Positions 1 through 41,175 of a DNA stretch of 64,000 nucleotides are shown in pieces. The stretch spans positions 32,001 to 96,000 of the forward strand of contig JAZDHK010000001.1 of assembly GCA_043806035.1 (NCBI GenBank). The letters are read 5' to 3'. Position numbers and translations under genes: made by a program. The stretch's first letter is position 1. Every line of letters begins with the position of its first letter. The notes below the pieces were generated by a model. The model was not told where the DNA came from. It did no database searches and saw only the letters and a list, made by a program, of their open reading frames with translations. Source of the DNA: an archaeon. Lineage in GTDB: Archaea > Nanobdellota > Nanobdellia > Woesearchaeales > UBA9642.

Positions 1-857
1 AATCAGGCTCTGTATCACTAATCGGCGTCGACCAGAAAACCTGGTCAAGAATAACGACAGAGGCTATTGCTGAAGGCAGGATGCTTGACTCTGCAGACCA
101 GAACGTCATTGTCATTGGAGGAAAACTGGCCAGTTCCTTTTTCGACAAGCCCGTAGGCATAAACCAAATGATTACTATTGAAAGCAACGTCTTCCGAGTT
201 GTAGGCGTGCTTGATGATGACAGTACAACGATATACGCACCACTCGCCATGGCATACCAGGTGCTCGACGACAAAGAACAAGGCGTCTATGATTCCATTA
301 TCATCAAGATCAAGGATGAGGGCCAATTGGACGAGACCATTAACAAGACAGAACAAAGACTCATGCTCGTCCGTCATGTCACTGCAAAGACCCAAGACTT
401 CTCCATAACCTCAAGCAAGAAGATGCAAGAAACCCGTTCGGAGATGATGTCCTCCATGAATGCATTCTTGGTTGCTATAGCGGCAGTTTCCCTCATCGTC
501 GGCGCTGTTGGCATAGCAAATACGATGTTCACCTCAGTGCTCGAGAAGACGAAAGAAATAGGCATCATGAAGGCAATAGGCGCAAGAAACAGGGACATTC
601 TGACTATTTTCCTACTCAATGCTGCACTCATTGGCATGGTTGGTGGACTGTTGGGAGTGGTTTTTGGTATTGTGCTCTCTGGTGCATTGCCTGCACTCAT
701 GGGGGAAACAGGCATGCTTCGAGGAGGGACATTCGTTTCCCTCCATGCAATACTTATGGCACTGTCCGTCTCTGTCATCATCGGCATCGCTGCAGGCATC
801 ATCCCTGCATATCAAGCGTCAAAGCTCAAGCCAGTGGATGCGCTGCGATACGAATAA
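1..857 (+). CDS. ABC transporter permease, MacB/FtsX family (5'-truncated by window edge)
   Basis: Frame is open from the window start; GIANTMFTSVLEKTKEIGIMKAIGA and C-terminal PAYQASKLKPVDALRYE are typical FtsX/MacB permease motifs. Confidence 0.9.
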   Translation, partial: SGSVSLIGVDQKTWSRITTEAIAEGRMLDSADQNVIVIGGKLASSFFDKPVGINQMITIESNVFRVVGVLDDDSTTIYAPLAMAYQVLDDKEQGVYDSIIIKIKDEGQLDETINKTEQRLMLVRHVTAKTQDFSITSSKKMQETRSEMMSSMNAFLVAIAAVSLIVGAVGIANTMFTSVLEKTKEIGIMKAIGARNRDILTIFLLNAALIGMVGGLLGVVFGIVLSGALPALMGETGMLRGGTFVSLHAILMALSVSVIIGIAAGIIPAYQASKLKPVDALRYE

Positions 858-874
858 CTGAGTATACATTTCTG

Positions 875-2506
875 TTATGCCAGTCCCAAACTCTCCACGA
901 TGATCTTTGCATCGAATGGCGTTAGGTCGGCGTATTTCTGTCCATTGCCCAAGTACAGAATTGGCTTCTTCGTCACGAAACTGACAGAGATGGCAGCACC
1001 TCCCTTGTCATCGACATCTGCCTTTGTCAAAATGATGGCATCTATGCCCACTGCCTTGTCGAACTCCTTCGCCTGCTCCACACAATCATTGCCCGTTATG
1101 GACTCACCGACAAAAATCTTCAGGTCAGGAGTGTTGACCCTAACTACCTTCTTGAGCTCTTCTATAAGATTGGCATTGCTGTGCATCCTTCCTGCCGTGT
1201 CGATAAGCACCACATCGATATTCTTCGCTTTCGCATGAGCGACTGCGTCGAATGCCACCGCCGCAGGATCCGCATGGTAGTCATGCTTGATGAGCTTGAC
1301 GTTGAGACGGTTGGCATGTTCCTCCAATTGGTGAATGGCGGCTGCCCTGAACGTGTCCGATGCTGCCATGACGCAACTATGCCCTTCCTTCTGGATCATG
1401 TGCGCGAGCTTGGCCATGCTCGTCGTCTTCCCTGAGCCGTTGACGCCTATCATGACGATGACGTACGGCAGTTGCTGTTTCTTCTTCATTTTTATTTCTG
1501 CGATGATGTCTCGCTGCTCGACATCGAACAATTGAGTGATGCTCTCCTTGAGCGTCTCGCTGATAATCTTCTCCACGCTGTGCCGTGAGATCTTCCCTTG
1601 CGTGAGTTCCGCTTTCAAGTCCATCTTAATTTTTTCAATGACTTCCACAGCGACGTTGTTCTCCAGCATGATAATTTCTAGATCCCAGAATAACTCTTCG
1701 AACTTCTCTTCCTTGAGGGTTATCTTCGTGAATGCGTCGGCGATCTTGCCGAAGAACCCTTTCTTCTCTTCTTCTTCATGCACTTTTTCTTTTTTCTGCT
1801 CGTGCTCTCGCTTGAGCAGGGCTATTTTCTCTTCACGCTGTTTTCTCTGCTCTTCCTGCAATTTTTTTTCTTCACGATCGAGCTTCGCCTCTTCCTCAAA
1901 TGCATCGAGCTCTTCCTCGACCGCTTCTGCAGCAGGAGCAATTTCGTCGCTGGGCAACGTGATGGCATTGTGCTCTTCTTCCAGTTTTGCCGCGGCCTCT
2001 CCTTCCAGCACCTTCTCCTCGACTTCCTGATCGAGATCGTGAGCAATCTGCTCGTTCAGATCCTCCTCTGTCTTCCTGCCGAAGATGCGTGCAAAGAATC
2101 CTTTCTTCTCCCGCTCTTCCTCGACATTCTCATCTTTAGGAGCTTCAATTTCGATGTAGTCAGGAGATGTGTCTTCCTGTTTTTCTTCAACAGTGTCCAG
2201 CAGTTCTTGCGCAGAGGGCTGCTTTATTTCATGCGGGAGACACTCTGCTTTGAGCGGCTCTCCTTGCACGGCATTGATCAGCTCTTGCGCTGACGGCGCA
2301 GGTTTCTTTTCAGGATGCTTGCGAATGTCTGTATGTTTTTCTTCATGCTTTGGGGCTGTTTTCTCTTCGGGCTGCTTTATCGCCACGTGTTTCTTCTCAG
2401 GGGGTGTTTCCTCTTCGCTGACCTTCTCGACGGTCGCTTCTTTCTCCACTGCTTTCGTGAACTTGCCGAGCGTCTTTTTGAGCGCCTCCTTGAAGAATCC
2501 GAACAT
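875..2506 (-). CDS. ftsY: Signal recognition particle receptor FtsY with long acidic N-terminal region
   Basis: GVNGSGKTT, DTFRAAA, DTAGR, TKAD, GGAAIS, GNGQKY motifs; archaeal aIF6-pfdA-ftsY gene order. Confidence 0.97.
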   Translation of the reverse strand: MFGFFKEALKKTLGKFTKAVEKEATVEKVSEEETPPEKKHVAIKQPEEKTAPKHEEKHTDIRKHPEKKPAPSAQELINAVQGEPLKAECLPHEIKQPSAQELLDTVEEKQEDTSPDYIEIEAPKDENVEEEREKKGFFARIFGRKTEEDLNEQIAHDLDQEVEEKVLEGEAAAKLEEEHNAITLPSDEIAPAAEAVEEELDAFEEEAKLDREEKKLQEEQRKQREEKIALLKREHEQKKEKVHEEEEKKGFFGKIADAFTKITLKEEKFEELFWDLEIIMLENNVAVEVIEKIKMDLKAELTQGKISRHSVEKIISETLKESITQLFDVEQRDIIAEIKMKKKQQLPYVIVMIGVNGSGKTTSMAKLAHMIQKEGHSCVMAASDTFRAAAIHQLEEHANRLNVKLIKHDYHADPAAVAFDAVAHAKAKNIDVVLIDTAGRMHSNANLIEELKKVVRVNTPDLKIFVGESITGNDCVEQAKEFDKAVGIDAIILTKADVDDKGGAAISVSFVTKKPILYLGNGQKYADLTPFDAKIIVESLGLA

Positions 2507-2904
2507 CAGCCATCACCTGGTGTCAGAGAGGCATCGAGCTTTTGCGCCTGCTCTACAAGTTCGTTGAACTGCATAACCAGCTTTTCCTTGTACGCGGCCA
2601 TCTCCGCATGCTGCTTGAGGATGAGTATCTTGACGTCTTCGATGGACTTCTCGACGACGGTATTGCTGCCCACATTCACCAGCACGGACTCGCTGCCGAG
2701 CAGCGTCGCCTTGGCAAAGACCCCATTGATGACGCTCACCAGCAGCTCATCGCCTTTCTTGAGCTTGCTGAACTCGTCGATGTGTTTGAGCGTGCCTTGC
2801 ATCTCAGCAATTTGCTCGTCCACCTGCTGCAATGCCTGCTCGATCTGCTTCATCTGCAGGTCTATGGTCTGAATCTGGAAGATGTGTTCCTTGTTGAGTT
2901 CCAT
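2506..2904 (-). CDS. pfdA: Prefoldin subunit alpha
   Basis: Coiled-coil arms flanking ELLVSVINGVFAKA...VLVNVGSNTVVEKS; lies between aIF6 and ftsY; start set at MELNKE. Confidence 0.9.
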   Translation of the reverse strand: MELNKEHIFQIQTIDLQMKQIEQALQQVDEQIAEMQGTLKHIDEFSKLKKGDELLVSVINGVFAKATLLGSESVLVNVGSNTVVEKSIEDVKILILKQHAEMAAYKEKLVMQFNELVEQAQKLDASLTPGDG

Positions 2905-2905
2905 G

Positions 2906-3574
2906 CTATCCCTCCGTGAACCCGAATGCCTGTTCTGCATTGACGAGTTCTGGGCCTCCGGACATGGCGCCAATGACCAGACCGTGCCTGTTCACGAGTA
3001 CCCCGCTGCTGATATAGGCATTGCCGAAATTGACCGTGCCCGTGGTTATGGGCAACTTGAAGAGATCTGCGAGGAATGCGTACTCATCGTCGGTGATGTC
3101 GTGGCTGACGAGCATGCCTTTCCTGTTGTGGGCGGCCATACTGCCGATGCTGAACACGTCGGCAATCTTTGCCTGCTGCACGGGAATGTTAACGCTGTCT
3201 CTGATCTGCTGGACGAGCTCTTTGGGGAGTTCCTTATTAACTAAGGCGGCCTTGTCCGTCATGATGATGTTGTTGCCCAGGCAGGTGAATTTTGTCTTGA
3301 TGAGCTGGTAGGGGAGGTTGTACTGCTCGAGCCTTTTCAGCTCGTCTGGGAATGCGATGTCGGGTACGAGCAATGTGTGGTTGTTGCCCACAAGAAAGAC
3401 ACCCAGCATGGACGTTCCTGCAATGTTGAGCCGGTGAATGGGAACGTTGAGCTCCTTACCTATCTGCCTGGCTGCCTCTTCAGGCACGTCGTTGCCCAGC
3501 AGGCAATAGCTGTCCGTGCAGAACCCATACAGACCTATGTTGGGATTGCTGTAAAAGCTCAGGATGAGCGTCAT
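2906..3574 (-). CDS. eif6: Translation initiation factor aIF6
   Basis: NPNIGLYG, LGNNII, IGSMAAHN, GTVNFG..ISSGVLVN motifs. Confidence 0.95.
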   Translation of the reverse strand: MTLILSFYSNPNIGLYGFCTDSYCLLGNDVPEEAARQIGKELNVPIHRLNIAGTSMLGVFLVGNNHTLLVPDIAFPDELKRLEQYNLPYQLIKTKFTCLGNNIIMTDKAALVNKELPKELVQQIRDSVNIPVQQAKIADVFSIGSMAAHNRKGMLVSHDITDDEYAFLADLFKLPITTGTVNFGNAYISSGVLVNRHGLVIGAMSGGPELVNAEQAFGFTEG

Positions 3575-4761: not shown

Positions 4762-4793
4762 ACATTAAATAGGCTTCTCTTTATAAATGAGAC

Positions 4794-5447
4794 ATGGCCT
4801 TTTGGGAAGTCATCCTTGCAGTGCTCGCCTACATTTGGCATCTCATCCTTTCCTGGCTCAACCTTTTCATCGCACCCATTCTTAACTTAGAGCTGATGTG
4901 GATCATCATTCCTATCTGGTTCTCCTGGTTTTTTGCTGAGTTCTTCCAGGAAAAGTCAGGCACGTCATATGGGAATGCCATCAGCAACGGCGTCGTCCCC
5001 GTCTTTGTAGGGCTTGACTGGACGAGATATCTTGTAAAGCTCATAACTGCAGGAGAGCTCATGTGGGGGTGGGAACTAGCAATAAAATTCTTCATCTGCT
5101 TCATCATCTTCGCGTATGGGCTTTCGGTCATCATCTATGGCATCAAAGCGAGGGCGTTCGTGCATTATTTCGGCAGGATTCGAGAAATAACGTACATACT
5201 CCTCATGATCACTCCGCTCATGTACGGCGTTGCCGAGCTGCACGGTGAGTTTTTCCTTGTCATCTTCCTCTTCTTTCCCATATGGTATTTCGTCATCGAA
5301 TGGATTGACAAAAAAATCCCCGATCCTCTTGCCGTGCGCAAAGACAGGGAAGACACAGAATCAGGACAGCCCTCTCCTTCATTTAGCCAACCTCCTCCCC
5401 AGACGAGCTTCCCTGACAAGAATCCTTTCCCTCCTTTTCCACAGTAA
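4794..5447 (+). CDS. Hypothetical multi-pass membrane protein with Pro-rich tail
   Basis: Several hydrophobic helices; C-terminal PSPSFSQPPPQ...PFPPFPQ. Confidence 0.75.
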   Translation: MAFWEVILAVLAYIWHLILSWLNLFIAPILNLELMWIIIPIWFSWFFAEFFQEKSGTSYGNAISNGVVPVFVGLDWTRYLVKLITAGELMWGWELAIKFFICFIIFAYGLSVIIYGIKARAFVHYFGRIREITYILLMITPLMYGVAELHGEFFLVIFLFFPIWYFVIEWIDKKIPDPLAVRKDREDTESGQPSPSFSQPPPQTSFPDKNPFPPFPQ

Positions 5448-5479
5448 TATTTAAGAACTAGCACTGCAAGGAAGATTCC

Positions 5480-5782
5480 ATGAGACGACTGCTGCTCGCA
5501 CTGCTCCTGCTTGCTTTCCTTGCAGGATGTGCTTCAGACAATCCACCACAGTACGCATGCACAGAACACAGTGATTGCATGCTCGTCAAGGACAATGTCG
5601 CCCATAACCAGTGCTGCCTCTGGGAAGCCATCAACGCAAACTACGAGTCTTGGCATAAAGAAAAAGTTTCTGCACGGCTGATGTGCATCAAGCCCTGCCT
5701 GCTCGACCAGAACAGCGTTGAAGCGGGCTGCTTCAACAATGTCTGCGCGGTCGTTCATCTCAAGAATAGTACAGAAGAATAA
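5480..5782 (+). CDS. Small Cys-rich lipoprotein
   Basis: Lipobox FLAGC; eight further Cys (C..HSDC, CC, C..PC, C....C). Confidence 0.7.
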   Translation: MRRLLLALLLLAFLAGCASDNPPQYACTEHSDCMLVKDNVAHNQCCLWEAINANYESWHKEKVSARLMCIKPCLLDQNSVEAGCFNNVCAVVHLKNSTEE

Positions 5783-5788
5783 AAAAAT

Positions 5789-7405
<1,617 letters not shown>

Positions 7406-9721: not shown

Positions 9722-10557
9722 AGGATGAGCAGCACCGTCCCCCCGAGCATGATGAACGTGGCGATGCTTCGTAGCAGGACGTGTTTTTCCTTGAACAATT
9801 CTCCCCCTGCAATGACGCTAAACAATATTGATATTCTGCGAAGTGGCAGCACGATGCTGACGAATGCAAGCGGCAGTGCGAGCAGGAACGCGAAATTAGA
9901 GCTGATGCCCAGAACAGATATGGTGAAGAGGTGCTTTTGTTTCACTTCCTCGAACAGTTCCTTGAAGCCGTGCTGTACCACGGAAAAGATGATCAGGAGG
10001 ACGTTGACGAAAACCCACAACCACCAGCCCAAGACGAGAGGGGGAACAGTTGCAATGCTGAATTTCTGTAGCGTAGCAACCACGCCACCAAGCGCTGCAG
10101 CGAGCACGGCAAGCAGCACGTAATGTCCTTTCACTTTCTCCTTGAAAGCGGACAGGTCAAGATTAAGTAGGAACGCCCCGCTTACGATAAGGATAATCCC
10201 CGCAATGTTCACCACGTGCAGTCGCTCATGAAGGAAGAGCATGGCAAGGATGAGCAAAAACAGTGGCGTGAGTTCCATGAGCGGGCTGGCAATGCTGATG
10301 TCCAGATGCCTGAGCGCCTTATAGTAGAAGTGGACTTCTGCGGTGAGCAAAATGCTGATGATGAAAATGATGACTATCTCTCTGAATGCTATGGGCGTGA
10401 GGATGAACGGGGCTATTAGTAGGAGAAGCAGCAACGACCACGCCCCTCGTGCAGCATTGAACGCGATACTGTGACGGTGCTGCAGGCTTTTCTTACTCAA
10501 AATGTCAACGGCAGCAAGCAGGACAGCGCTTGCAAAGATAAGCAGGAGGACATTCAT
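9718..10557 (-). CDS. EamA/DMT family transporter
   Basis: About 10 TM helices; YKALRHLDISIASPL...LFLHERL; ELFKEK. Confidence 0.88.
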   Translation of the reverse strand: MNVLLLIFASAVLLAAVDILSKKSLQHRHSIAFNAARGAWSLLLLLLIAPFILTPIAFREIVIIFIISILLTAEVHFYYKALRHLDISIASPLMELTPLFLLILAMLFLHERLHVVNIAGIILIVSGAFLLNLDLSAFKEKVKGHYVLLAVLAAALGGVVATLQKFSIATVPPLVLGWWLWVFVNVLLIIFSVVQHGFKELFEEVKQKHLFTISVLGISSNFAFLLALPLAFVSIVLPLRRISILFSVIAGGELFKEKHVLLRSIATFIMLGGTVLLIL

Positions 10558-10641
10558 GCGTCCTTCCTCAACAGCACGCTTTATATAGTTAACCGATAAC
10601 TATAAAAAAGACAGGTCTAAAGAGAGAGTTGAGGTGATATC

Positions 10642-10812
10642 GTGTCCGATACCATAATAGTGAAGTCGAAAATAAAGGAACTTGTTGGCAATTATAACGT
10701 CTCATCTGACTTTTCTGAAGAGCTCGATAAGAAGGTGAAGCTGCTCATCGCCGATGCGGTCAAGCGGGCAGAGGCAAACGGCAGGAAGACCGTGATGGGA
10801 AAGGATATATAG
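10642..10812 (+). CDS. Small histone-fold protein (DUF1931-like), 56 aa, not in ORF track
   Basis: Manual translation MSDTIIVKSKIKELVGNYNVSSDFSEELDKKVKLLIADAVKRAEANGRKTVMGKDI; RKTV..KD histone L2/alpha3 motif; SD GAGGTGA before GTG. Confidence 0.88.
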   Translation: MSDTIIVKSKIKELVGNYNVSSDFSEELDKKVKLLIADAVKRAEANGRKTVMGKDI

Positions 10813-10931
10813 ACTGAGTGTCCAGTCTGTTGTGTACAGTTGTGTATCTTGAACTAACTCCTTCAAGTCTTGCACATCAACATGATCCAAACACATTTGT
10901 TGCCATTATTTTTTTGCAGTATGCTTCCACT

Positions 10932-11246
10932 TTACATTTTTCCTGCGAGGTAGCCTATACCGAAGCCTGCTGCCTGAATGAGTCCTGCAGTTATTGTACC
11001 GATGACGCCATAGATTCCACTTGCCTTTGCTGACTCTTTTGCATTGCCGCTCATGCCGTAGCAGAATGCCCACGAGCCAATTGCTGCAGATGCTCCTCCT
11101 GCAATCATTGGTCCGTACATGAGTACGTTCCTCACCGCTTCCGGTTCGATGGGTGTGTTGTGCGCTGCTGCGTATCCTGTGAAGAGTCCGGAAACGCCTG
11201 CGCCTATGTACGATGCGGGTATTGCTCTAATCAGTAGTTCTAACAT
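10932..11246 (-). CDS. Small Gly/Ala-rich membrane protein
   Basis: Three hydrophobic helices; SD AGGTGA upstream of MLELL. Confidence 0.6.
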   Translation of the reverse strand: MLELLIRAIPASYIGAGVSGLFTGYAAAHNTPIEPEAVRNVLMYGPMIAGGASAAIGSWAFCYGMSGNAKESAKASGIYGVIGTITAGLIQAAGFGIGYLAGKM

Positions 11247-11397
11247 GTTTTCACCTTGCGTTTTTGTGTATTTGCGCTGTGCGCGCATAAGGGTAGAAAT
11301 AGCACCCGTTAGTATATACTTTTGTCTTATAGTATATATATTAGCTTATTTTGTTTATAGAAAAGAAATATATTTATACTTCCTCTTCCTACTGCTC

Positions 11398-12291
11398 ATG
11401 ATGCGAAGGAAACTCGTCAAGCAAGGAGCAGCAACGCTTATGGTGAGCCTGCCGGCAGACTGGATCAGGCAGCATGGGCTGGGCAAGGGCGACGAGATAG
11501 ATGTCGAGGAAGAGCAAGGAAAATTATGCATCAGCAAAGTCTCACAAAAAGAAAAATCTTCAACTACCATTCGTCTCACCTCTCCTGTCGAGAGCAGCGT
11601 ACGAACAAGCATCATCAACGCATACAGAGCAGGCTACGATATTCTGAATATTGAGTACGGTGACGAACGATGCATGGTCGCAATCCAATCCACTCTTGAG
11701 AAGTATCTTCTGGGTTTCGACATCCTCGAGCGGCATAAGAATTCATGTATTTTAACCAGCATATCAGAACCTGCCTTTGAGCAATTCCATAGCATCCTGC
11801 AAAAACTCATAACCAATATAGGCTATGTCATCCACGCAAGCATAGCGCGACTGCAGAAAAAAACTCCATTTCCCGATTATGAAGCCATCATCTTCAAGAC
11901 GTACCAGTACGACAACTTCTGCAGGCGCATCATCGCAAAGCAGCATTTCGACAGAGAATTCCTTCCTGACTTCATGGGCATGCTCATCAATGCCTTGCAC
12001 GAATTCCTCTTCCTCAACAGACTGCTTGACAAGCAGCCCTGCCAAGTCGAACACACAGCCCTCGCACATCTGGATGACGCATTCTTACTCATCCAGAAAG
12101 CATTCACGAAAAAAGACCATACAGCAGTCGAGAAACTCCACGAGACACAGCTCGGCTATGAGCACTTCTCAGAAGACATCAAGAATCCCAAACGAGTCAT
12201 CCCCTTGTACCATCTCGCCCTCGCCAGCAGGTTCCTGTACTTGTCGACGGGGCCATTGCTAGGATATTTGCTTAAGCAGCCATCCGCCTAA
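11398..12291 (+). CDS. AbrB/MazE-PhoU type phosphate uptake regulator
   Basis: RKLVKQGAATLMVSLPADWIRQHGLGKGDEI AbrB domain followed by INAYRAGYD helical region. Confidence 0.85.
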   Translation: MMRRKLVKQGAATLMVSLPADWIRQHGLGKGDEIDVEEEQGKLCISKVSQKEKSSTTIRLTSPVESSVRTSIINAYRAGYDILNIEYGDERCMVAIQSTLEKYLLGFDILERHKNSCILTSISEPAFEQFHSILQKLITNIGYVIHASIARLQKKTPFPDYEAIIFKTYQYDNFCRRIIAKQHFDREFLPDFMGMLINALHEFLFLNRLLDKQPCQVEHTALAHLDDAFLLIQKAFTKKDHTAVEKLHETQLGYEHFSEDIKNPKRVIPLYHLALASRFLYLSTGPLLGYLLKQPSA

Positions 12292-31228: not shown

Positions 31229-32356
31229 TTATCTGCACAGCATGGCACGGACGCTGCTTCCTTCAATGCGGAACTGCACGGGCAAGAATTTTTCTGTCAC
31301 GTAGATGTTGCTCAGGATGTGCTTCGTTATCTTCGACGTTGTTATTGTGTCCCCAGATAGTGCAAGGAAGGGAATGAGCTGGTCTGCAGTATATGCATCA
31401 ACAACAGCACCAGTGTTCAACTCGTCAAGCAATTGCTGTGCAGCTTCTTTGCCGACAATCTCGGCTTGCTTTCCTTGCTCGCCGAGCACGCTTGCACTCA
31501 CAAGCTGCGGCTGGTGAGGGTCAGTTCCCTCAGAGGAACCTCCTCTACTGACGAGCGTGATGCCGCTGCCTACGGAAGCAGTCACCCGATAACTTTCTTG
31601 CATACTGCACGGCTGTGCCAGCGTGAGCTTTGCCGCTTGTGCCTGCCTTTCAGCGACCCGTGTTTGAGCGAGTTCCTGGCTGGCATGGCTGCTGCCAACG
31701 ATGGAAAGAGTGGTTTGTTGACGTTCGAGAACGAACGGCAGGGTATGGGCAAGCGTTTCTTTGAACGCAGTGTGTTGCGCGAACACTGGCAGGAGCTGCT
31801 TTGCATGCGCATTCTCTTCCTGCAAGCGGTCCTTGAGCGGTTTCAGGGTGAGGGTGACTTCTCCCTGCCCTTTCGGATAGTAGCCTCGCTTGTACACCGT
31901 GCAGGAAATGTCAGCATATTTTCTCAAGTACGGGATCATGACGAGGATGAAATGATCGATAGGTGCAGACCAGGCAACATCCGTTCCCCCTTTGAGCCGG
32001 ACGTGGATGGTTTTGTTGAGGAAGAGCAGCGGCAGCAACAACGTCTGGAGGACAAGCGTTATGCTGCCCGCCGTCCCTATATCTATGAGCAAATTTTTCT
32101 TTTTCAGATCGCTGGGAATGTACTCTATCCAGTCTGCACCGACGATGACATTACGCAGGGTTGCATTGCAGAGTTCTTTCAGTGCCAGCAGGCCGTGCAC
32201 GTGCTGTGCCTTGAGACCAGGTCTTGCCCTGCCTGACCTAATATTTTCGATGCGCACGGGCTTCCCTGTTATGGTCGAAAAGGCGATCGCTGTCCTGACG
32301 ATCTGACCTCCACCCTCGCCATGCGAGCCATCGATGAGAACGAACTCCATGACCAT
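31229..32356 (-). CDS. rtcA: RNA 3'-terminal phosphate cyclase
   Basis: IDGSHGEGGGQIVRT, IRSGR.RPGL.AQH, GTAGSITLVLQ, RGYYPKG, ADQL...TKHILSN (catalytic His). Confidence 0.95.
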   Translation of the reverse strand: MVMEFVLIDGSHGEGGGQIVRTAIAFSTITGKPVRIENIRSGRARPGLKAQHVHGLLALKELCNATLRNVIVGADWIEYIPSDLKKKNLLIDIGTAGSITLVLQTLLLPLLFLNKTIHVRLKGGTDVAWSAPIDHFILVMIPYLRKYADISCTVYKRGYYPKGQGEVTLTLKPLKDRLQEENAHAKQLLPVFAQHTAFKETLAHTLPFVLERQQTTLSIVGSSHASQELAQTRVAERQAQAAKLTLAQPCSMQESYRVTASVGSGITLVSRGGSSEGTDPHQPQLVSASVLGEQGKQAEIVGKEAAQQLLDELNTGAVVDAYTADQLIPFLALSGDTITTSKITKHILSNIYVTEKFLPVQFRIEGSSVRAMLCR

Positions 32357-34477: not shown

Positions 34478-34702
34478 ATGCAGCTCATCATTGACACTAC
34501 AAAGGATAGCCCGGAGCAATTGAGAAAGGCCATAGCCTTCCTGCAAGAACTTGTTGGAGAACAGCCTGCCATTGAACCAGTTCCTTTGCTCAAGGAACTC
34601 GCGCAGCAGGTCAAGCAGGAATTGCCAAAAACGAAGAATGGAAAGAAAGCGCCCGACGATGAAGACGAGGATGTCGAGTTCAAAATTGTTGAGTACACGT
34701 GA
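34478..34702 (+). CDS. Small hypothetical protein
   Basis: MQLIIDTTKDSPEQLRKAIAFL...KIVEY; TTTTTAAA upstream. Confidence 0.65.
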   Translation: MQLIIDTTKDSPEQLRKAIAFLQELVGEQPAIEPVPLLKELAQQVKQELPKTKNGKKAPDDEDEDVEFKIVEYT

Positions 34703-35819
34703 TGTATCTTCCCAATCGTTCCTCAATCTCCTGCAAGATCTCTCCAGGAAAGGCATAGCCCGCTATGCACATGCGTAACGTGTGTTCCTGATCAAGAAAG
34801 TGAGGAATTCCCAGAGGAAGAATGCCTTTTTTCTCATACGGATCATACCAAAATGTGTGCAGGGCGCGATCTAGTTTCTGAAATGAGAGCGGTTCGTTAG
34901 ATGTCATGTGCATTTGCCAGATGGGCAAGTTCTTGTTCAGCCCATACAGGTGAGGATATATGGAAATGGGGTGCCGAGCATTTATCTCGCAAAAGTACAA
35001 CTTGTCAGCATCAATAAACTCAATATCTATGGGCCCTCTATAGCCGTCTGCATGTATTTGCTGTGCAATCAGCATACCTTGCCTGTAGAGTGCGTCCTGC
35101 CTGCTTGCAGTGGGGAATTTGCTTGAGCGATATGCGAGTTTGTCACACAGCCGGTCCTGCATGTAGACGAGTGCTATTTCGTCCTCCTCAAGAAAGAAGC
35201 AAATGGCGGGCAAGTTTTTTGGTGGCACGTATTCCTCAATAACGAATTCGGTCGAACGAGTGATGTCATCGGGCAACAACGCATACGTCCCGAGGTACCG
35301 TGCTAATTCTTGCGGTGACGTTACTACTGCAGAACCGAGTCCTCCGCGCGAATATTCTGCCTTCACCACTATTGGTTTTTGTATTGCTATTTTTTGTAGG
35401 TCTTCCTTAGTGACGACTGCCAATCTGGGATTTGCCATGTCAGGAAATGTCGTCATAATAAGTCGTGCCATTTTGGCCTTGCTCTTCGTCCTGTTCGTGC
35501 TGGCAATGAGTGCCTGCTTGTCATTGCTGCCGAAAAGGTCTGCATTGAAGGTCTTCTCGACCCAAAGCAACTCATCAAGCGTATTTGGAGCAGCATACAT
35601 GCTGAGCACTCGTCGCTCTTTCGCAGGCTCGTATTTGTACACCAGTCGTGCGTTCATGAGCCCGCTGTCTCTCCAGAATTCCAGGAAAGAGTCGTACACG
35701 CGAGAAGGAATGCTACGCTCAAAACCGTGCTGTCCTAGAACAGCATATTGGTCGATGACTATGCTGTCCGCAATCATCAGGCAATCGAGGGAAGGATGCG
35801 TGTAGTAGACGGTGGTCAT
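34680..35819 (-). CDS. ATP-grasp enzyme (putative RiPP tailoring ligase)
   Basis: PIVVKAEYSRGGLGS, FVIEEYV, GYRGPIDIEF...YFCEINAR; ATGA-coupled to the upstream gene. Confidence 0.82.
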   Translation of the reverse strand: MTTVYYTHPSLDCLMIADSIVIDQYAVLGQHGFERSIPSRVYDSFLEFWRDSGLMNARLVYKYEPAKERRVLSMYAAPNTLDELLWVEKTFNADLFGSNDKQALIASTNRTKSKAKMARLIMTTFPDMANPRLAVVTKEDLQKIAIQKPIVVKAEYSRGGLGSAVVTSPQELARYLGTYALLPDDITRSTEFVIEEYVPPKNLPAICFFLEEDEIALVYMQDRLCDKLAYRSSKFPTASRQDALYRQGMLIAQQIHADGYRGPIDIEFIDADKLYFCEINARHPISIYPHLYGLNKNLPIWQMHMTSNEPLSFQKLDRALHTFWYDPYEKKGILPLGIPHFLDQEHTLRMCIAGYAFPGEILQEIEERLGRYITCTQQF

Positions 35820-36910
35820 GCCAACTCCTCCAGCCGTGCAGTATACGCACCCTTCTTTTCTAACGAGCGAATTGCCATAATCTCAAAGAGCTGATTCCGC
35901 ACATCCCTATTTTCTTCATTGTATTCCATTGCGAGCGTGATGAAATCCAACGTATCTCTCACGAAACGTTTTCTTGCAATCGGTACGTGTACAATAATCT
36001 TCTGCTGCTCCTTCCAACAATGTATACGATTGAGTCGTTGTCGAAAGAAAATGTCGTCCAGTGCATTGTCTACTTCCTCAGGAGCGCTGAGTCCATGACA
36101 GAGACGCTCATACAATGCTCGCATGCCTTCTTCAGTTTCCAGTGGACATGGAAGCAAACCCTCTCGTGCGAGATAACCGACGCTGTTGATGAGTTGACAG
36201 ATGTCAAACGTACTGGCGTCTCTCTTGCGTAACAGATTCTTTCGTACGACGTTCAGTACTGCTTGTTCAATACGCACATAATAGTTTCTTCCCGAGAGTT
36301 GCGTGAAGAGCGCACACACGGATTCGGCTTTTTCGGCAGGAGAGCGTGATGCATAGTATGTTGGTGCCACGTTTTCAAGAAATGCGTCTTCAGGCTTCGG
36401 AATAACCATGTCAAGCAACAAACTGGAAAATGGGAGGACATCCATAAGAACGGCATGAAGGGGCAGATGGTCTCTGCGTGCTGCAATGAGTGCGTGGTGT
36501 GCGTTGTGCTTTCTCACTGCATACTTCTCCTTGAGTACGGAAAACCACAACTCATCCTGAAATATGCGCTCTATGACTTCTACAAGATTCCGCTCAGGAT
36601 TGTGGTAATGCAAGAGTATGCCTTCTTCTACTTCTGCAATAGGCCGATCCTCCGGGAAAATACCCAATGCTCTAAATGAATTCTTTATGAGCAATACATT
36701 GTAGTCGCACTCCAATCCCGGTCTGTCTCGCATGCACCAAACGGCAATATTTTCCTCGCCACAGTCTCTGTTTGCGAATGTCGAAGAGGGATCTTTCTTT
36801 GCCTTGTACTCTGCTGCTTGTTTTAACCGTTCGTACGTCGTCAGAGAGACACGGTATGCTGCCAATTGCGTGCGTAGCACATTCTTTTCCGGAAGAGAGA
36901 GGTCTATCAT
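35816..36910 (-). CDS. Unknown protein in RiPP-like operon
   Basis: 364-aa ORF with ATGA overlaps at both ends; no family recognised. Confidence 0.7.
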   Translation of the reverse strand: MIDLSLPEKNVLRTQLAAYRVSLTTYERLKQAAEYKAKKDPSSTFANRDCGEENIAVWCMRDRPGLECDYNVLLIKNSFRALGIFPEDRPIAEVEEGILLHYHNPERNLVEVIERIFQDELWFSVLKEKYAVRKHNAHHALIAARRDHLPLHAVLMDVLPFSSLLLDMVIPKPEDAFLENVAPTYYASRSPAEKAESVCALFTQLSGRNYYVRIEQAVLNVVRKNLLRKRDASTFDICQLINSVGYLAREGLLPCPLETEEGMRALYERLCHGLSAPEEVDNALDDIFFRQRLNRIHCWKEQQKIIVHVPIARKRFVRDTLDFITLAMEYNEENRDVRNQLFEIMAIRSLEKKGAYTARLEELA

Positions 36911-37545
36911 TTCTTCAGCTCAAAATGAATCATTCGGGTCGCGTCTCGTGCATCATACACTGCATTCGCGTATTCTGCAAGAACCTGTATGTGCAATCCT
37001 TCTTTCCTGAACATTGCAGCCAAAAATGACAAGGTGGTTCCATGTACTGCTCCTGTTTTTACGAGCACATTTCTGTACAGTTCGTGCGCGGGTACGTACT
37101 GCAGTGCGTGTTCTGCATAGATGGTTTCATCCAATGATGCGGAAAATGTTTCTCCAACAACAAGACCGTTTTCCTTGACCACTCTACTCATTTCATGTAC
37201 GGCTTGCTTTATTGTTCTATTCGATGCGAGGCAGTGCAGAAGATAATTCGCGTAAACGATGTCTATGCTGGCATCTCTAAACGGCAATTGCAGCACGTTG
37301 GTTTTGTAAATGTGTGCATGAGGTAGGCGTGATTTTGCCAGAGAGATGCATATACCATCAATGTCTATTCCTAAATAGTGCCCTATACGGATTACCTGAT
37401 TTTCCTGTAAAAAAAGACCGTCATTTCCCATTCCCATACCACAGTCCAGAAAAGTACAATCCGGATGTTCAGTTGCGTAGGAAAACAGGCAAGGATACTT
37501 CTGCACATGTTGTTGTTCCCTGTTGAATTTGTGGTAGTGGGTCAT
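36907..37545 (-). CDS. Class I SAM-dependent methyltransferase
   Basis: FLDCGMGMG, GIDID, LPFRDASIDIV, EMSRVVKENG; SD GAGGTG. Confidence 0.88.
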   Translation of the reverse strand: MTHYHKFNREQQHVQKYPCLFSYATEHPDCTFLDCGMGMGNDGLFLQENQVIRIGHYLGIDIDGICISLAKSRLPHAHIYKTNVLQLPFRDASIDIVYANYLLHCLASNRTIKQAVHEMSRVVKENGLVVGETFSASLDETIYAEHALQYVPAHELYRNVLVKTGAVHGTTLSFLAAMFRKEGLHIQVLAEYANAVYDARDATRMIHFELKK

Positions 37546-37567
37546 TTGTCCTGACCCACCTCTTTTT

Positions 37568-37912
37568 TTATTCTGGCTTGCTGAAATACTCGTCTGCGGA
37601 ACTACTGAGGAAGGGTCGTTCGCAGCACGGACCACCACCGCCACCTCCATGATAGCATGCATTAGCAGCAGTGAAGTATGTGTCGGCTGAACTGTTCAGA
37701 AATGGTCGCTCACAGCATGGTCCGTAGTGGCAGCCGCCTGAATAGCAGTCTCTCGTTAACAAACCATCAGTGGCAATTACCAATTGCCCACCCGGTAGCA
37801 TGCTTATCGGTCTGCCATATCGGTAAATGACGTCAATGGTTCCGCCTTCCAATAGGTAATCGAGTAACGCATTCGGCTTTTCAGGTAAGGGTATTTGGTC
37901 AAGCGATGTCAT
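37568..37912 (-). CDS. Putative RiPP precursor with two Cys-rich core repeats
   Basis: About 55-aa Cys-free leader followed by CYSGGCHYGPCCERPFLNSSADTYFTAANA / CYHGGGGGGPCCERPFLSSSADEYFSKPE. Confidence 0.78.
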   Translation of the reverse strand: MTSLDQIPLPEKPNALLDYLLEGGTIDVIYRYGRPISMLPGGQLVIATDGLLTRDCYSGGCHYGPCCERPFLNSSADTYFTAANACYHGGGGGGPCCERPFLSSSADEYFSKPE

Positions 37913-39234
37913 TCATGCACCTCCACATATCCTTTTTTGTACAGCTTTGTCAGGAATACATTGACGAAGTGTTCACGCAAATTATGCTTTATAATGATGT
38001 CCTGAACGTTACGTTGCTCTTGATTCTTCTCTTTATAAATTATTTGCAAAAGTGTGAATTCAGGCACGTCCAGCTGTACTGCAGTCCCTGGAAGTCCCTG
38101 TGCACGTATTTTGTACTTGCCATCAGGCAGTTCTTCAACATCAAGATCTTGTCTGATGAAGATGTCTCGCGCACTTAATGCCTCAACGTGCGGTCGCTTG
38201 TCAAGAGGATGTTTGAAGGGAATTCTCTTTTGGTAAATGCTGCCTTCAGCATGCATTCTGTCGACAGGGCAGCCGCCGCCGCAGCTCGGATATTCCACAC
38301 ACACCGTACATGCTTTGTCTAGAGGGAGGCTTCCTTTGTAGGTAAATAGCTTAGTGAGTATGTCATCGAAAGAATCGGTGAAGATGCTGCCGAAACTGCC
38401 GTCATTTATCATGGTGCAGAATCGCACGTCTCCGTCTAAGGTAACTACTGTATCGCTCTCTGGCGGCGTGCATCGGCTAGTGATAAAGAAATATTTTTGA
38501 GGATCTTTGATGAGACAGAGCGTATATGGTCGTACAGAGAATACACTCATGCCGTGCCGTTCATGCAATAGGAGCAGCTGGTCCATGACCTCAAGAATCT
38601 CTTTGGGCTGTAGTGCAAAGGCATTCTGCTCGTGTGACGTCGGTGTTATGGGAGAAGCGCCAAAGTTATTTACTCCACACTCTTTGTGCAGGAATTCTCC
38701 CGTCGTGTACACCTGGTTTTTGTTTTGTTGCACTGCTACCATGTTCACTTCTAATTTCAACGGCGATGCGACAATGTGAGGAAGGAGTGCAGTGAGCGCA
38801 GCGTATTCTTGTGCAGTCGCTCCCATGATGCTTGTGAAGGTTACGGGATCTGAAGACGCATAGGATGCAAGAATGGATTCTAACCCGGCATCCGCGAATG
38901 CAGAAATATCTTCTTGCGTGACGTGCTTTAAATTGGTATTGAGTGATGGCTTGAGATTGTTCTTTCTTGCTTCGCGTATGCCGAAGAGGAGCAATTCTTT
39001 TTGTAGTGTGGGCTCTCCTCCAGTATACGTCACTTCTTTAAAACCTATGCTGTGAAATCGTTCTAGAATTTTTCGCAAGTTCTCTTTTTTCGTCTCGAGT
39101 GATGTTAAAAGCATCCATTTCTGATAGGGAGTCAATTCCTTCCGTGGCGCATTGCGCTCAACATTGAAACAATAAATACATGCATTAGAACATTCTGGCG
39201 TAAGTTCTATCTTTGCAAGGTATGGTTTTAGCAT
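37909..39234 (-). CDS. Radical SAM/SPASM maturase with possible C-terminal RRE/wHTH
   Basis: CSNACIYC, YTGGEPTL, SPASM-type RC...DGDVRFC...CTVC...PSCGGGC; C-terminal FLTKLYKKGYV. Confidence 0.92.
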   Translation of the reverse strand: MLKPYLAKIELTPECSNACIYCFNVERNAPRKELTPYQKWMLLTSLETKKENLRKILERFHSIGFKEVTYTGGEPTLQKELLLFGIREARKNNLKPSLNTNLKHVTQEDISAFADAGLESILASYASSDPVTFTSIMGATAQEYAALTALLPHIVASPLKLEVNMVAVQQNKNQVYTTGEFLHKECGVNNFGASPITPTSHEQNAFALQPKEILEVMDQLLLLHERHGMSVFSVRPYTLCLIKDPQKYFFITSRCTPPESDTVVTLDGDVRFCTMINDGSFGSIFTDSFDDILTKLFTYKGSLPLDKACTVCVEYPSCGGGCPVDRMHAEGSIYQKRIPFKHPLDKRPHVEALSARDIFIRQDLDVEELPDGKYKIRAQGLPGTAVQLDVPEFTLLQIIYKEKNQEQRNVQDIIIKHNLREHFVNVFLTKLYKKGYVEVHE

Positions 39235-39337
39235 ACTTTCCACCAACGTCCCCCACCAAAGAGAGAAATACTCTGCATTATATAAACGTTGTGTGTTGTT
39301 TTAAAAGAAGAACAGAACATCCAGTGGAGATGACTCG

Positions 39338-39940
39338 TCAGTGTACGATATTGACATACGTTCCCAAAGGAACCTGCTCGTACAGGTCGATGATGTCCTT
39401 GTTGCTTGCACGTATACACCCGTCGGAGTGCGGCTGTCCCAACGACCATTCAAGATTCGTGCCGTGAATGTAAATGCCTCTTTTTGCCGTTCCTTCGTTC
39501 TGTTCTTCCACACCGCAAATTTGTAGAAGCCTGGTGATGACTACGGGCTTTGCTTTGTTTTTCTCTGTGTAGACAGGAACTGATTCGTCACAGAGCTTGG
39601 CCTTCCTGAGCACGCGTCCTACCGATGCATCATCTCCTGCTTTGGTGCAGATCATGTGAATGCCAGGAGGTGTTTTGTGACTGGCGACGCCATTACCGAT
39701 CCCGTTTCTGCCCGTCGAGACCTGCACTTCTTTGTCGATAATGATGCTGTCCTGTTCTGCATGGACGAGATACAATTTTTGTTCCTTGCCAAGGATGATG
39801 ATTGCAGGATCGCCTTCAGGTATGGAAACTGCTGCATCGATGGTTGTATACGCTGCCTTGATGCGAGCATAGGCTGTTTCTTGTCCTGACAGCTTTCCTG
39901 GATAGAGCATGAGTGCAGCAAGGAGCAGTTCACGAAGCAT
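39338..39940 (-). CDS. L,D-transpeptidase (YkuD) family protein
   Basis: VSTG, KTPPG, RGIYIHGT...GQPHSDGCIR...DIIDLY. Confidence 0.9.
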   Translation of the reverse strand: MLRELLLAALMLYPGKLSGQETAYARIKAAYTTIDAAVSIPEGDPAIIILGKEQKLYLVHAEQDSIIIDKEVQVSTGRNGIGNGVASHKTPPGIHMICTKAGDDASVGRVLRKAKLCDESVPVYTEKNKAKPVVITRLLQICGVEEQNEGTAKRGIYIHGTNLEWSLGQPHSDGCIRASNKDIIDLYEQVPLGTYVNIVH

Positions 39941-40086
39941 GCGTGCATGAACTGCTTTCTCCTTTTAAATTTGTTGCTCTCTCTTTTTTGCTTGTCTGTG
40001 TTTTGTCGGCAATCTCTCATGACTGCTTATAGCAAGGTTTAAATATCACTCTGCGATAACAACAAACAGAGGTGAGGGGGGATGGT

Positions 40087-41175
40087 GTGGAGGATTTGCA
40101 TAGCGCCTACGTGCTCCTGATTAAGGCAAAATCTCCCGAAGACATTTTCGGGACGCTCGCAGAAAAAAACGATCAGGAAAAGAAGGATGCGCTTAAAGAC
40201 CGTTATCGTGATTTAGCCATGCGTGTGCATCCAGACAGGTATGCCAAGGATCCAAAAAGCCTTCACGAAGCGGAAGAGGCAATCAAAGCACTCAACGACC
40301 TGCATGCCTGGGCCGAACAGGCGATCGATGCAGGCACGTACGGAACGAGACAACGACCTCCTTCCCCTAACAATGTCATCGCAACGTTCGAGCATAACGG
40401 CGATCTCTATCGCCTCTTCTCTAACAGCATAGAAGGTGATTTCGGCATCATTTCATTCGGAGAACGCATCCGCAACGGTGACGTTGAAGACATCTGCCTC
40501 AAGACGGCAAAAGAACAAGAAGACAATGATTTGCTGAAAAACGAACAGCGCATCCTCAAAGAAATCCAGCACAAATCACTGCCTCTCTATCTCGATGCCA
40601 TCCTCCTCGAAGATGGAACTCCCGCAACGGTGCTGCGAAAGATAAGCAACAGCTATGACCTCCTGACGGTCAAGGAGCACTTCCCGCAAGGACTGCCCCA
40701 AGAGCATGCCGTGTGGGTGCTTGATAGGTTGCTGAGCGTTCTTGGATACTTGCACATCAACAATACCATCCACGGGGCAATAGAGCCAGGCAACATCATG
40801 ATCACGCCGTACAACCATAATGGTTTGCTTATCGACTACTTGCTTGCCGTCCCTGACGCGCACACAGCTGGTGCAGCCTACAAAGGGCTGAACGAGTACA
40901 GCGCACCAGAACTCACGAAACGAGCACGGCCACATCCCGCAGCAGACATGTACGCTCTGGGAAAAACAATGGTGTTCTTGCTCGGCGGGCAAGACACCGA
41001 CCTGCCAGACCAGGTTAATCCGCACATTCAATCGTTCATCAAAAAATTCCTAGTCAAAGATCCTGCGCGACGAGAAAGTGATGCGTGGCAGGCATGGCAT
41101 GAACTCAAAAATCTCAGGCAAGAGGTTTTCGGAGCGCCAAGCCAATTTTTGACATTAACTATAGGAGGGAGATAA
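40087..41175 (+). CDS. J-domain plus protein-kinase-like fusion
   Basis: YRDLAMRVHPD J-domain; CLK, NEQRIL, HGAIEPGNI, LIDY, YSAPE, ADMYALG. Confidence 0.85.
   Translation: MEDLHSAYVLLIKAKSPEDIFGTLAEKNDQEKKDALKDRYRDLAMRVHPDRYAKDPKSLHEAEEAIKALNDLHAWAEQAIDAGTYGTRQRPPSPNNVIATFEHNGDLYRLFSNSIEGDFGIISFGERIRNGDVEDICLKTAKEQEDNDLLKNEQRILKEIQHKSLPLYLDAILLEDGTPATVLRKISNSYDLLTVKEHFPQGLPQEHAVWVLDRLLSVLGYLHINNTIHGAIEPGNIMITPYNHNGLLIDYLLAVPDAHTAGAAYKGLNEYSAPELTKRARPHPAADMYALGKTMVFLLGGQDTDLPDQVNPHIQSFIKKFLVKDPARRESDAWQAWHELKNLRQEVFGAPSQFLTLTIGGR

Follow-up and report, generated by a model that had tools for sequence, protein, structure and literature searches.

What does a small open reading frame (ORF) do when it is wedged between the genes for a radical S-adenosylmethionine (rSAM) enzyme and a methyltransferase in an archaeal genome? 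The question is raised by a 114-residue ORF on the minus strand of contig JAZDHK010000001.1 (assembly GCA_043806035.1), from a Woesearchaeales archaeon with a genome of 1.5 Mb. The 64,000-nucleotide (nt) stretch analysed here, positions 32,001 to 96,000 of that contig, is referred to as the window, and its own numbering is used throughout. The ORF is translationally coupled to the gene of an rSAM/SPASM enzyme, which among solved structures comes closest to peptide maturases. It is very likely the substrate of the neighbouring enzymes, and probably the precursor of a peptide made on ribosomes and modified after translation (RiPP), in which ~55 leader residues would precede a two-module core giving a single product.

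The C-terminal 59 residues of the precursor form two units in tandem, repeating every 30 residues exactly (Table 1). Across the first 25 aligned positions, the units share 19/25 residues and 48/75 nucleotides, with 12 of the 19 identical residues encoded by different codons. The nonapeptide GPCCERPFL is the same in both units, and seven of its nine codons differ (GGA CCA TGC TGT GAG CGA CCA TTT CTG in one, GGT CCG TGC TGC GAA CGA CCC TTC CTC in the other). Residues kept in both units include C1, Y2, C11, C12, E13, S19, S20, D22, Y24 and F25; the variable stretch, between C1-Y2 and G9-P10, reads SGGCHY in unit 1 and HGGGGG in unit 2. The units are entered through the junctions TRD|CY and ANA|CY, which have no cleavage motif in common, and the precursor ends in Glu. 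A third, degenerate unit within the leader, hinted at by an alignment with P0002 (a bacterial surface protein described below), was rejected on a shuffle test (P 0.31-0.40).

The likeness of the two units is far from random, their local BLOSUM62 score of 109 being reached in 0/5000 shuffles (maximum 54). The 27 nucleotide differences between them split 5/5/17 by codon position, and within the 19 conserved codons the split is 0/0/12, all at third positions. When 27 random substitutions were introduced into unit 1, at least 19 residues were kept in 0/200,000 trials (mean 8.9, maximum 16). By the Nei-Gojobori method the nonsynonymous divergence (dN) is 0.21, and the synonymous divergence (dS) is undefined due to saturation of the synonymous sites; identical codons occur at 7/19 conserved positions, where 6.7-7.2 would be expected at full synonymous saturation. 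Synonymous saturation, combined with protein conservation beyond the neutral expectation, shows an old duplication whose protein product was held by purifying selection, and hence a real, translated gene. The initial annotation had drawn the same picture, which is now backed by the neutral simulations and the codon saturation; the codons it quoted, its count of seven differing codons in nine and its variable segments are all correct on recount.

Logan contigs from two runs of one sample reproduce positions 37330-37739 and 37508-37856 with 0 differences and 0 gaps, although this sample is probably the source sample, so that the match is not independent and only rules out a gross assembly artefact. 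A sequencing-run search for the stretch returned no RNA run, only DNA runs of one biofilm-metagenome study.

Outside the repeated region, residues 13-24 of the putative leader read PNALLDYLLEGG, and a second GG follows at residues 41-42. On reading the sequence, PNALLDYLLEGG loosely fits the leader signature of graspetide precursors given in PMC8939145, P-h-h-x(1,2)-h plus a GG site in the first ~30 residues. The N-terminus does not read like a signal peptide, and the precursor has no Pfam or NCBIfam family match. Its ESM Atlas model is of low confidence, with a predicted local distance difference test (pLDDT) of 0.35 and a predicted template modelling score (pTM) of 0.16, and structure-search rows, all with a template modelling (TM) score of <0.5, carry no meaning at that confidence; such a model is as might be expected of an unfolded substrate, which is weak evidence.

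The precursor lies in a tightly packed minus-strand operon that runs from the rSAM enzyme through the precursor, the methyltransferase and an orphan 364-residue protein to an ATP-grasp enzyme. Neighbouring genes overlap by 4 nt at every junction except that between precursor and methyltransferase, where 22 nt separate them. The precursor ATG (37910-37912) overlaps the rSAM stop codon TGA (37909-37911) by 4 nt (ATGA), and is preceded by a Shine-Dalgarno-like heptamer (Table 1). As heptamers of the GGAGGTG type are not rare in the window (10, against 5.6 expected), the position of this one counts for more than its presence. The methyltransferase ATG begins 22 nt past the precursor stop codon, with GAGGTGG 10 nt upstream. 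The ORF thus has the arrangement by which RiPP precursors are recognised, being small, adjacent to and co-oriented with peptide-modifying enzymes. The operon (34680-39246) has a GC content of 46.5%, compared with a mean of 49.1% (standard deviation 1.1%, minimum 46.6%) for 4.5-kb segments of the 64-kb stretch; horizontal transfer is not claimed from this, the deviation being too weak.

The rSAM enzyme is well supported as a SPASM-type protein, with Pfam Radical_SAM at 2.2e-13, SPASM PF13186 at 22.5 bits (cut-off 21.5) and TIGR04085 at 32.2 bits (cut-off 27). Its CxxxCxxC motif and seven SPASM cysteines are invariant in 5/5 aligned homologues, with whose starts the ATG at 39234 lines up. Profile searches of the PDB matched PqqE (1.8e-17), SkfB (1.5e-14), SuiB (7.8e-14) and CteB (1.4e-11), as well as MoaA, and Foldseek with an AlphaFold2 (AF2) model (mean pLDDT 65) placed the RiPP maturases SkfB and SuiB on top. 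In that model, residues 362-443 adopt a beta-beta-beta(-beta)-alpha-alpha-alpha topology (pLDDT 61-73). This C-terminal tail, which has no PqqD match and a weak MarR-type winged-helix Pfam match below cut-off (E 0.0022), has in the model the beta3-alpha3 layout of a RiPP recognition element (RRE), sited C-terminally, and is likely to be one. A complex prediction for the rSAM enzyme (five-row alignment) with the precursor scored 0.01 against a mark of 0.32, and is uninformative either way.

The remaining partners are less easily placed. The orphan 364-residue protein has no Pfam and no NCBIfam match, and its AF2 model, built from a three-row alignment, is of too low a confidence for use (mean pLDDT 42.9). 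When the PDB was searched with a profile of three ATP-grasp family members, 57 sequences scored E<=1; biotin carboxylases came first (1.9e-7), and an L-propargylglycine-L-glutamate ligase and PGM1 were weak matches. The five NCBIfam matches of the enzyme are all carboxylase, carbamoyl phosphate synthetase (CPSase) or Ddl-like, and all below cut-off. From its sequence matches, the ATP-grasp enzyme is best described as atypical and biotin-carboxylase/CPSase-like, and it is not demonstrably graspetide-type.

Three related archaeal operons carry the same enzyme set (rSAM/SPASM, orphan ~350-residue protein and ATP-grasp) and a small ORF of their own (Table 1). The named records and proteins of these operons are labelled Candidatus Woesearchaeota, and in a genome of the same order archaeal rRNAs lie beside its operon copy. 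The set is rare: used as a marker, the 364-residue protein turned up in 3/401 genomes of a phylum-wide sample, one of them being that of the window, and a search of 5.8 billion proteins returned only itself and one other protein. The ATP-grasp profile found two loci in 185,579 species genomes and four proteins in the 5.8-billion set; P0008, of 390 residues (27% identity, 97% coverage), counts as the fifth ATP-grasp relative. A search of species-genome contigs with the rSAM enzyme gave 53 pattern matches, 0 of which were confirmed. Compared with the window, the related rSAM enzymes are 31% and 26% identical over ~440 residues, C-terminal tail included, and the ATP-grasp enzymes 26-27% identical. 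The methyltransferase is confined to the window's operon within this set, as is the tandem-duplicated tail, seen in 1/4 small ORFs; the tails of the others differ and are unrepeated. In loci L036 and L099, the small ORFs are near-identical over the C-terminal ~55 residues, with enzymes only 73-85% identical. All four small ORFs have a Pro-[Asn/Ser/Asp]-[Ala/Ser] segment in the N-terminal half, without statistical support.

Table 1. Positions of the precursor, its operon and related loci; coordinates without a locus handle refer to the window.
Feature	Coordinates	Strand	Details
Precursor ORF	37568..37912	-	114 aa; stop codon 37568-37570
Putative leader, residues 1-55	37748..37912	-	sequence read; leader role presumed
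Candidate core unit 1, residues 56-85	37658..37747	-	CYSGGCHYGPCCERPFLNSSADTYFTAANA
Candidate core unit 2, residues 86-114	37571..37657	-	CYHGGGGGGPCCERPFLSSSADEYFSKPE
Shine-Dalgarno-like GGAGGTG	37918..37924	-	5 nt upstream of precursor ATG (37910-37912)
Radical-SAM/SPASM enzyme	37909..39246	-	445 aa from TTG; likely true start ATG at 39234
Class-I SAM methyltransferase	36907..37545	-	212 aa; Methyltransf_11 1.2e-13
Orphan 364-aa protein	35816..36910	-	4-nt overlap with each neighbour
ATP-grasp enzyme	34680..35819	-	379 aa; CPSase_L_D2 4.6e-5
YkuD protein (L,D-transpeptidase/ElsL-like)	39338..39940	-	PF03734 5.8e-16; NF040925 4.5e-21, below cut-off
Related operon, L035 (G271)			rSAM, small ORF, 342-aa homologue; upstream, on the opposite strand, ATP-grasp and peptidase-MA-like HExxH protein
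Small ORF of L035			73 aa, directly after rSAM; ends ...NTDCYDNGCNECHRTCPT
Related operon, L036 (G125)			rSAM, 341-aa homologue, ATP-grasp, small ORF (75 aa), HExxH peptidase
Related operon, L099			rSAM, 341-aa homologue, ATP-grasp, small ORF (80 aa), HExxH peptidase
HExxH protein / B12-rSAM pair, L098	1525-2022 / 1991-3370	+ / -	
HExxH protein / B12-rSAM pair, L036	9657-10355 / 10316-11794	+ / -	
HExxH protein / B12-rSAM pair, L099	4098-4817 / 4787-6268	+ / -	

Six further homologues of the 364-residue protein in the order (295-344 residues, E 1.7e-12 to 3e-4) were rejected as members because of their different arrangement; in three of the six loci they abut an rSAM enzyme of ~325 residues, and no ATP-grasp or Cys-rich small ORF was noticed there. 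At L047 (6866-8739), L049 (6718-8600) and L051 (1-1081), the orphan-protein homologues have ~295-299 residues and a C-terminal YNE-x-NR motif, and abut the ~325-residue rSAM enzyme; L047 and L049 also have a ~140-residue protein, and no ATP-grasp was seen at these loci. These loci appear to represent a distinct rSAM-partner system, present repeatedly in the order.

Within the same archaeal family, L005 (870-1076, minus strand) and L006 (873-1088, minus strand) encode a peptide of 68-71 residues ending in CDxGDSCDGDGGCDGGSCDGG, coupled to an rSAM/SPASM enzyme of 468-485 residues, with a 149-residue HExxH (peptidase-MA-like) protein following. These peptides are a different, Cys/Asp/Gly-rich precursor family, and the two loci imply that systems pairing an rSAM enzyme with a Cys-rich peptide are recurrent in this lineage. 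In three genomes a peptidase-MA-like HExxH protein was also observed tail-to-tail with a B12-binding rSAM enzyme (Table 1).

A word-indexed search of the 5.8-billion-protein set, restricted to 62-200 residues, returned only the precursor itself. The initial annotation had proposed a tBLASTn or pattern search for GPCCERPF; this revealed the exact motif nowhere else in the collections searched, and the search without length limits brought a looser relative, on a 4.4-kb contig without a modifying enzyme, by which the annotation's own refuting condition is partly touched. The back-translated pattern matched 18 times in species genomes and 43 times in metagenomes, in no case with a second copy or with the flanking context required (CY-x-GG or FL-x-SSAD), and most matches were stop-interrupted or Arg/Pro-rich readings of GC-rich DNA. 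A metagenome scan with the precursor gave 187 pattern matches, 0 of them confirmed by tblastn. Two candidates were dismissed as chance: a second match in the precursor's own genome (E 0.27), and a 28-residue match in 41 relatives (E 0.03) that holds a TGA.

The looser relative, P0002, emerged from a length-free phmmer search of 1.84 billion representatives, which returned the precursor itself and this one other protein (E 4.5e-5). P0002 is an 806-residue bacterial surface protein with an N-terminal hydrophobic segment, Ig-like repeats and six to seven 28-residue repeats, CYSGGAYDGYAQRYFLQSDAGDTVVTNS. By BLASTP, two of its units are 44% identical to the two precursor units over 63 residues; the E-value is overstated because repeats are matched to repeats. 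The common elements occur in the same order, namely CYSGG, a Gly and R-x-F-L-x-S-x-A-x-D, at a near-equal period (28 vs 30 residues), whereas GPCCERP is absent from P0002, with DGYAQRY in its place. On its contig (L097; 1793-4213, plus strand), the CYSGG...RYFLQSDAGD repeats have one Cys each and are covered by no family; the protein also has five repeats of ~95 residues, and a C-terminus with VPEP and a hydrophobic stretch. Its sole neighbour on the contig is a 541-residue FGE-sulfatase-domain protein (125-1750, plus strand).

How the operon might act on its substrate can be outlined as follows. Residues 1-55 would serve as a leader through which the precursor binds the enzymes, the beta3-alpha3 tail of the rSAM enzyme being a possible docking site. 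The two 30-residue units would be two copies of one modification module, the product of a tandem duplication within the gene that dates back far enough for synonymous sites to be randomised, and each would receive the same modifications. The rSAM enzyme may form cross-links (thioether or C-C) at the three Cys residues kept in each unit (C1, C11 and C12) or at the conserved Tyr, while the ATP-grasp enzyme may make ester or amide bonds (lactone, lactam), or perform a ligation, via the conserved Ser-Ser, Asp and Glu; the graspetide-type Ser donors and Asp/Glu acceptors in the core (E13, S19, S20 and D22) are identical in both units. The methyltransferase would add a methylation, and the SGGCHY or HGGGGG stretch would be a tolerated loop. 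The product would keep both modules in one pseudo-dimeric peptide, with no release of two peptides. All of this chemistry is predicted.

In this light, the claims of the initial annotation about the core can be sorted. The modifying-enzyme context it had proposed for the precursor is supported by the operon of rSAM/SPASM, methyltransferase and ATP-grasp genes. Of the residues it listed as modifiable, each unit has kept Ser, Asp, Glu, Cys and Tyr, whereas the His and extra Cys of SGGCHY are missing from unit 2, and, being present only in unit 1, are not conserved cross-link candidates. The cyanobactin-type layout it had suggested, with a variable core and a constant recognition sequence, does not fit, as few modifiable residues fall outside the constant part, which has C, CC, E, SS, D and Y. 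With C1-Y2 and G9-P10 bounding the one variable stretch, the constant part would be the core itself. Its analogy with plesiocin, of repeated modules that are each modified, holds up better; the ATP-grasp enzyme, however, matches no RiPP ATP-grasp family.

Several observations weigh against a RiPP precursor with a two-module core. A precursor homologue with the same core was found in none of the collections searched, so that conservation across species cannot be shown, and a related 28-residue repeat occurs in P0002, a bacterial surface protein that is not a RiPP. No significant similarity joins the four small ORFs of the operon family; their best match spans eight residues (RDCYSGGC in the window, TDCYDNGC in L035; E 0.019), so the grouping of these ORFs as one precursor family follows from their position. 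The RRE-like tail of the rSAM enzyme comes from a model of mean pLDDT 65 built on five sequences, and the models for specific maturases score far under their cut-offs: PapB 27.1/340, SCIFF 22.2/425, StsB 24.8/625 and CefB 22.6/600 bits. None of the 57 PDB sequences matched by the ATP-grasp profile bears the name of a microviridin (MdnB/MdnC-type) or graspetide ligase, and no RiPP ATP-grasp family is among the NCBIfam matches; the PDB does contain MdnC structures. A Pfam scan of the operon detected no protease family, and neither a protease nor an exporter is encoded in it; a homologue of the zincin-like (peptidase-MA) protein of the related operons lies on another contig of the genome, beside a B12-rSAM enzyme.

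Other accounts of the ORF have to be measured against the same evidence. The units could be excised one by one, in the manner of cyanobactins or multi-copy microviridins, to give two slightly different peptides. A pair of units with a six-residue variable stretch is compatible with this, as is the zincin-like homologue elsewhere in the genome, and PMC8939145 mentions graspetide precursors with several GG motifs that were proposed to yield several peptides. No cleavage or recognition motif, however, recurs at the unit boundaries (TRD|CY vs ANA|CY), the operon has no protease gene, and variation at just 6/25 aligned positions makes for poor core diversity; separate excision is therefore rather unlikely. 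The absence of both a common junction motif and an operon protease instead favours one product with two modules. The peptide could also be a scaffold or cofactor precursor, like PqqA, MftA or pearlin-type scaffolds, in which one or two residues become a small molecule and the remainder is thrown away; the ATP-grasp enzyme would then ligate an amino acid to the C-terminal Glu. PqqE is indeed the best PDB sequence match of the rSAM enzyme, the ATP-grasp enzyme is nearer to ligases and carboxylases than to macrocyclases (as in its weak matches to L-propargylglycine-L-glutamate ligase and PGM1), and the peptide does end in Glu. Set against this, the PqqE match spans the generic rSAM core only (query 11-169), the C-termini in the related operons are quite different, and selection has kept 19/25 positions in both copies, far beyond the need of a single residue, which leaves the scaffold a very small chance.

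Modification could also be absent altogether. A small Cys/Gly-rich repeat protein, metal-binding or structural and kin to the CYSGG...R-FL-S-AGD repeats, might occupy its place in the operon incidentally or for regulatory reasons. The CC and the further Cys of each unit are plausible metal ligands, and the sole database relative, P0002, has no RiPP enzyme on its contig. That relative nevertheless lacks GPCCERP, the most conserved part of the units, its E-value is inflated by repeats, and its neighbourhood is barely sampled at 4.4 kb; moreover, both the ATGA coupling to the rSAM/SPASM gene and the recurrence of small ORFs across the related operons are in keeping with a substrate, and the N-terminus, as read, does not look like a signal peptide. 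An unmodified repeat protein is accordingly improbable. Least credible is a chance open frame between the rSAM and methyltransferase genes, which would account for the lack of homologues and family matches, but is effectively refuted by the third-position-only changes in conserved codons, the 0/200,000 simulations, the Shine-Dalgarno site and the ATGA coupling. A leader followed by two modules retained in one modified peptide thus remains the probable explanation.

The two units form a built-in control, as the 19/25 positions kept at silent-site saturation mark the residues needed by the enzymes or the target, and each modification is predicted to occur twice. The enzyme set falls under all curated family thresholds, so its chemistry may be new. 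A bolder proposal, held tentatively and with more doubt than belief, is that this is the founding two-module member of a RiPP class so far confined to Woesearchaeota, in which a SPASM rSAM enzyme with a C-terminal peptide-binding tail, a carboxylase-like ATP-grasp, an orphan ~350-residue partner and a methyltransferase would produce a pseudo-dimeric, Cys-cross-linked peptide. The product would then be one of the earliest natural products ascribed to a DPANN archaeon, and it could mediate an interaction with a host or competitor. The genomes of DPANN archaea are tiny, and these organisms presumably rely on other cells; five genes for one modified peptide are a notable investment for such a genome, and hint at a role of that kind. 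Should the peptide prove ordinary (for example, a thioether plus a lactone), it would be one more entry among many mined RiPP clusters. The distinctive features are the unusual host, the rare enzyme combination and the clean signal of internal duplication.

Some flanking genes may also be mentioned. The YkuD protein, of 200 residues with a hydrophobic N-terminus, is encoded 91 nt upstream of the rSAM gene, and its membership of the operon is uncertain. An archaeon should be without peptidoglycan; possible targets of the protein are bacterial cell walls or the precursor peptide. Further along, a 367-residue protein (40072-41175, plus strand) has a protein-kinase domain and a weak DnaJ (J-domain) match below cut-off, and is followed by a 324-residue protein without a family and a 304-residue protein with a pyruvate-kinase-barrel match.

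Comparison with known systems helps to locate the precursor. Cyanobactins also have repeated core-like units in one precursor; their hallmarks are PatA/PatG-type proteases, a heterocyclase and recognition sequences repeated round a hypervariable core, and the window's operon has none of these. Ranthipeptides and sactipeptides (SCIFF/CteB, freyrasin/PapB and SkfB) are alike in having an rSAM/SPASM enzyme with full auxiliary-cluster cysteines beside a Cys-rich precursor, freyrasin carrying a repeated Cys...Asp motif. They differ in that the putative peptide-binding domain, as modelled for the window's enzyme, is C-terminal and not N-terminal, and in that an ATP-grasp enzyme, a methyltransferase and an orphan protein are added here. 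TIGR04192 and TIGR04193, the models of the Bacteroidota grasp-with-SPASM system, are neither among the five ATP-grasp matches nor among the best 25 of the 43 rSAM matches (the remaining 18 NCBIfam matches score below 22 bits). TIGR04193 is cited in Table 1 of PMC8939145.

The literature on RiPPs, radical SAM and ATP-grasp enzymes in archaea, DPANN and Woesearchaeota gave no description of this operon among the matches listed. The nearest published genomic description is that of ATP-grasp loci (branches 1 and 2) in bacteria of the candidate phyla radiation (Makarova et al. 2022; PMC8939145). These encode a SPASM rSAM enzyme or a UbiE-like methyltransferase, an uncharacterised 'cluster 23' partner and zincin peptidases; they occur in small-genome hosts, each locus has a precursor unrelated to those of the others, and the leaders carry a P-h-h-x-h type motif plus GG (PMC8939145). 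Compared by description, the gene set is strikingly similar, and the window's leader contains PNALLDYLLEGG. The differences are that the published loci are bacterial and the window's is archaeal, and that the 364-residue protein is not obviously like the cluster 23 proteins, which are described as often being lipoproteins with signal peptides (PMC8939145).

In terms of the substrate itself, the closest parallels are found among graspetides with repeated motifs. Plesiocin has multiple repeats of cyclised motifs, its potency growing with repeat number, and corallotide has five repeated motifs, with graspetide synthetases sometimes requiring partner proteins (PMC13097080). In these systems tandem copies of a motif are each modified alike and kept in one product; the present operon likewise has an ATP-grasp gene, and Ser, Asp and Glu conserved in each unit. 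It differs in having only two, Cys-rich, units, a carboxylase-like ATP-grasp enzyme, an rSAM/SPASM enzyme coupled to the precursor and an archaeal host. By analogy, the precursor appears to resemble plesiocin or corallotide more than the cyanobactins: a member of no named family, it works like a repeated-module RiPP precursor.

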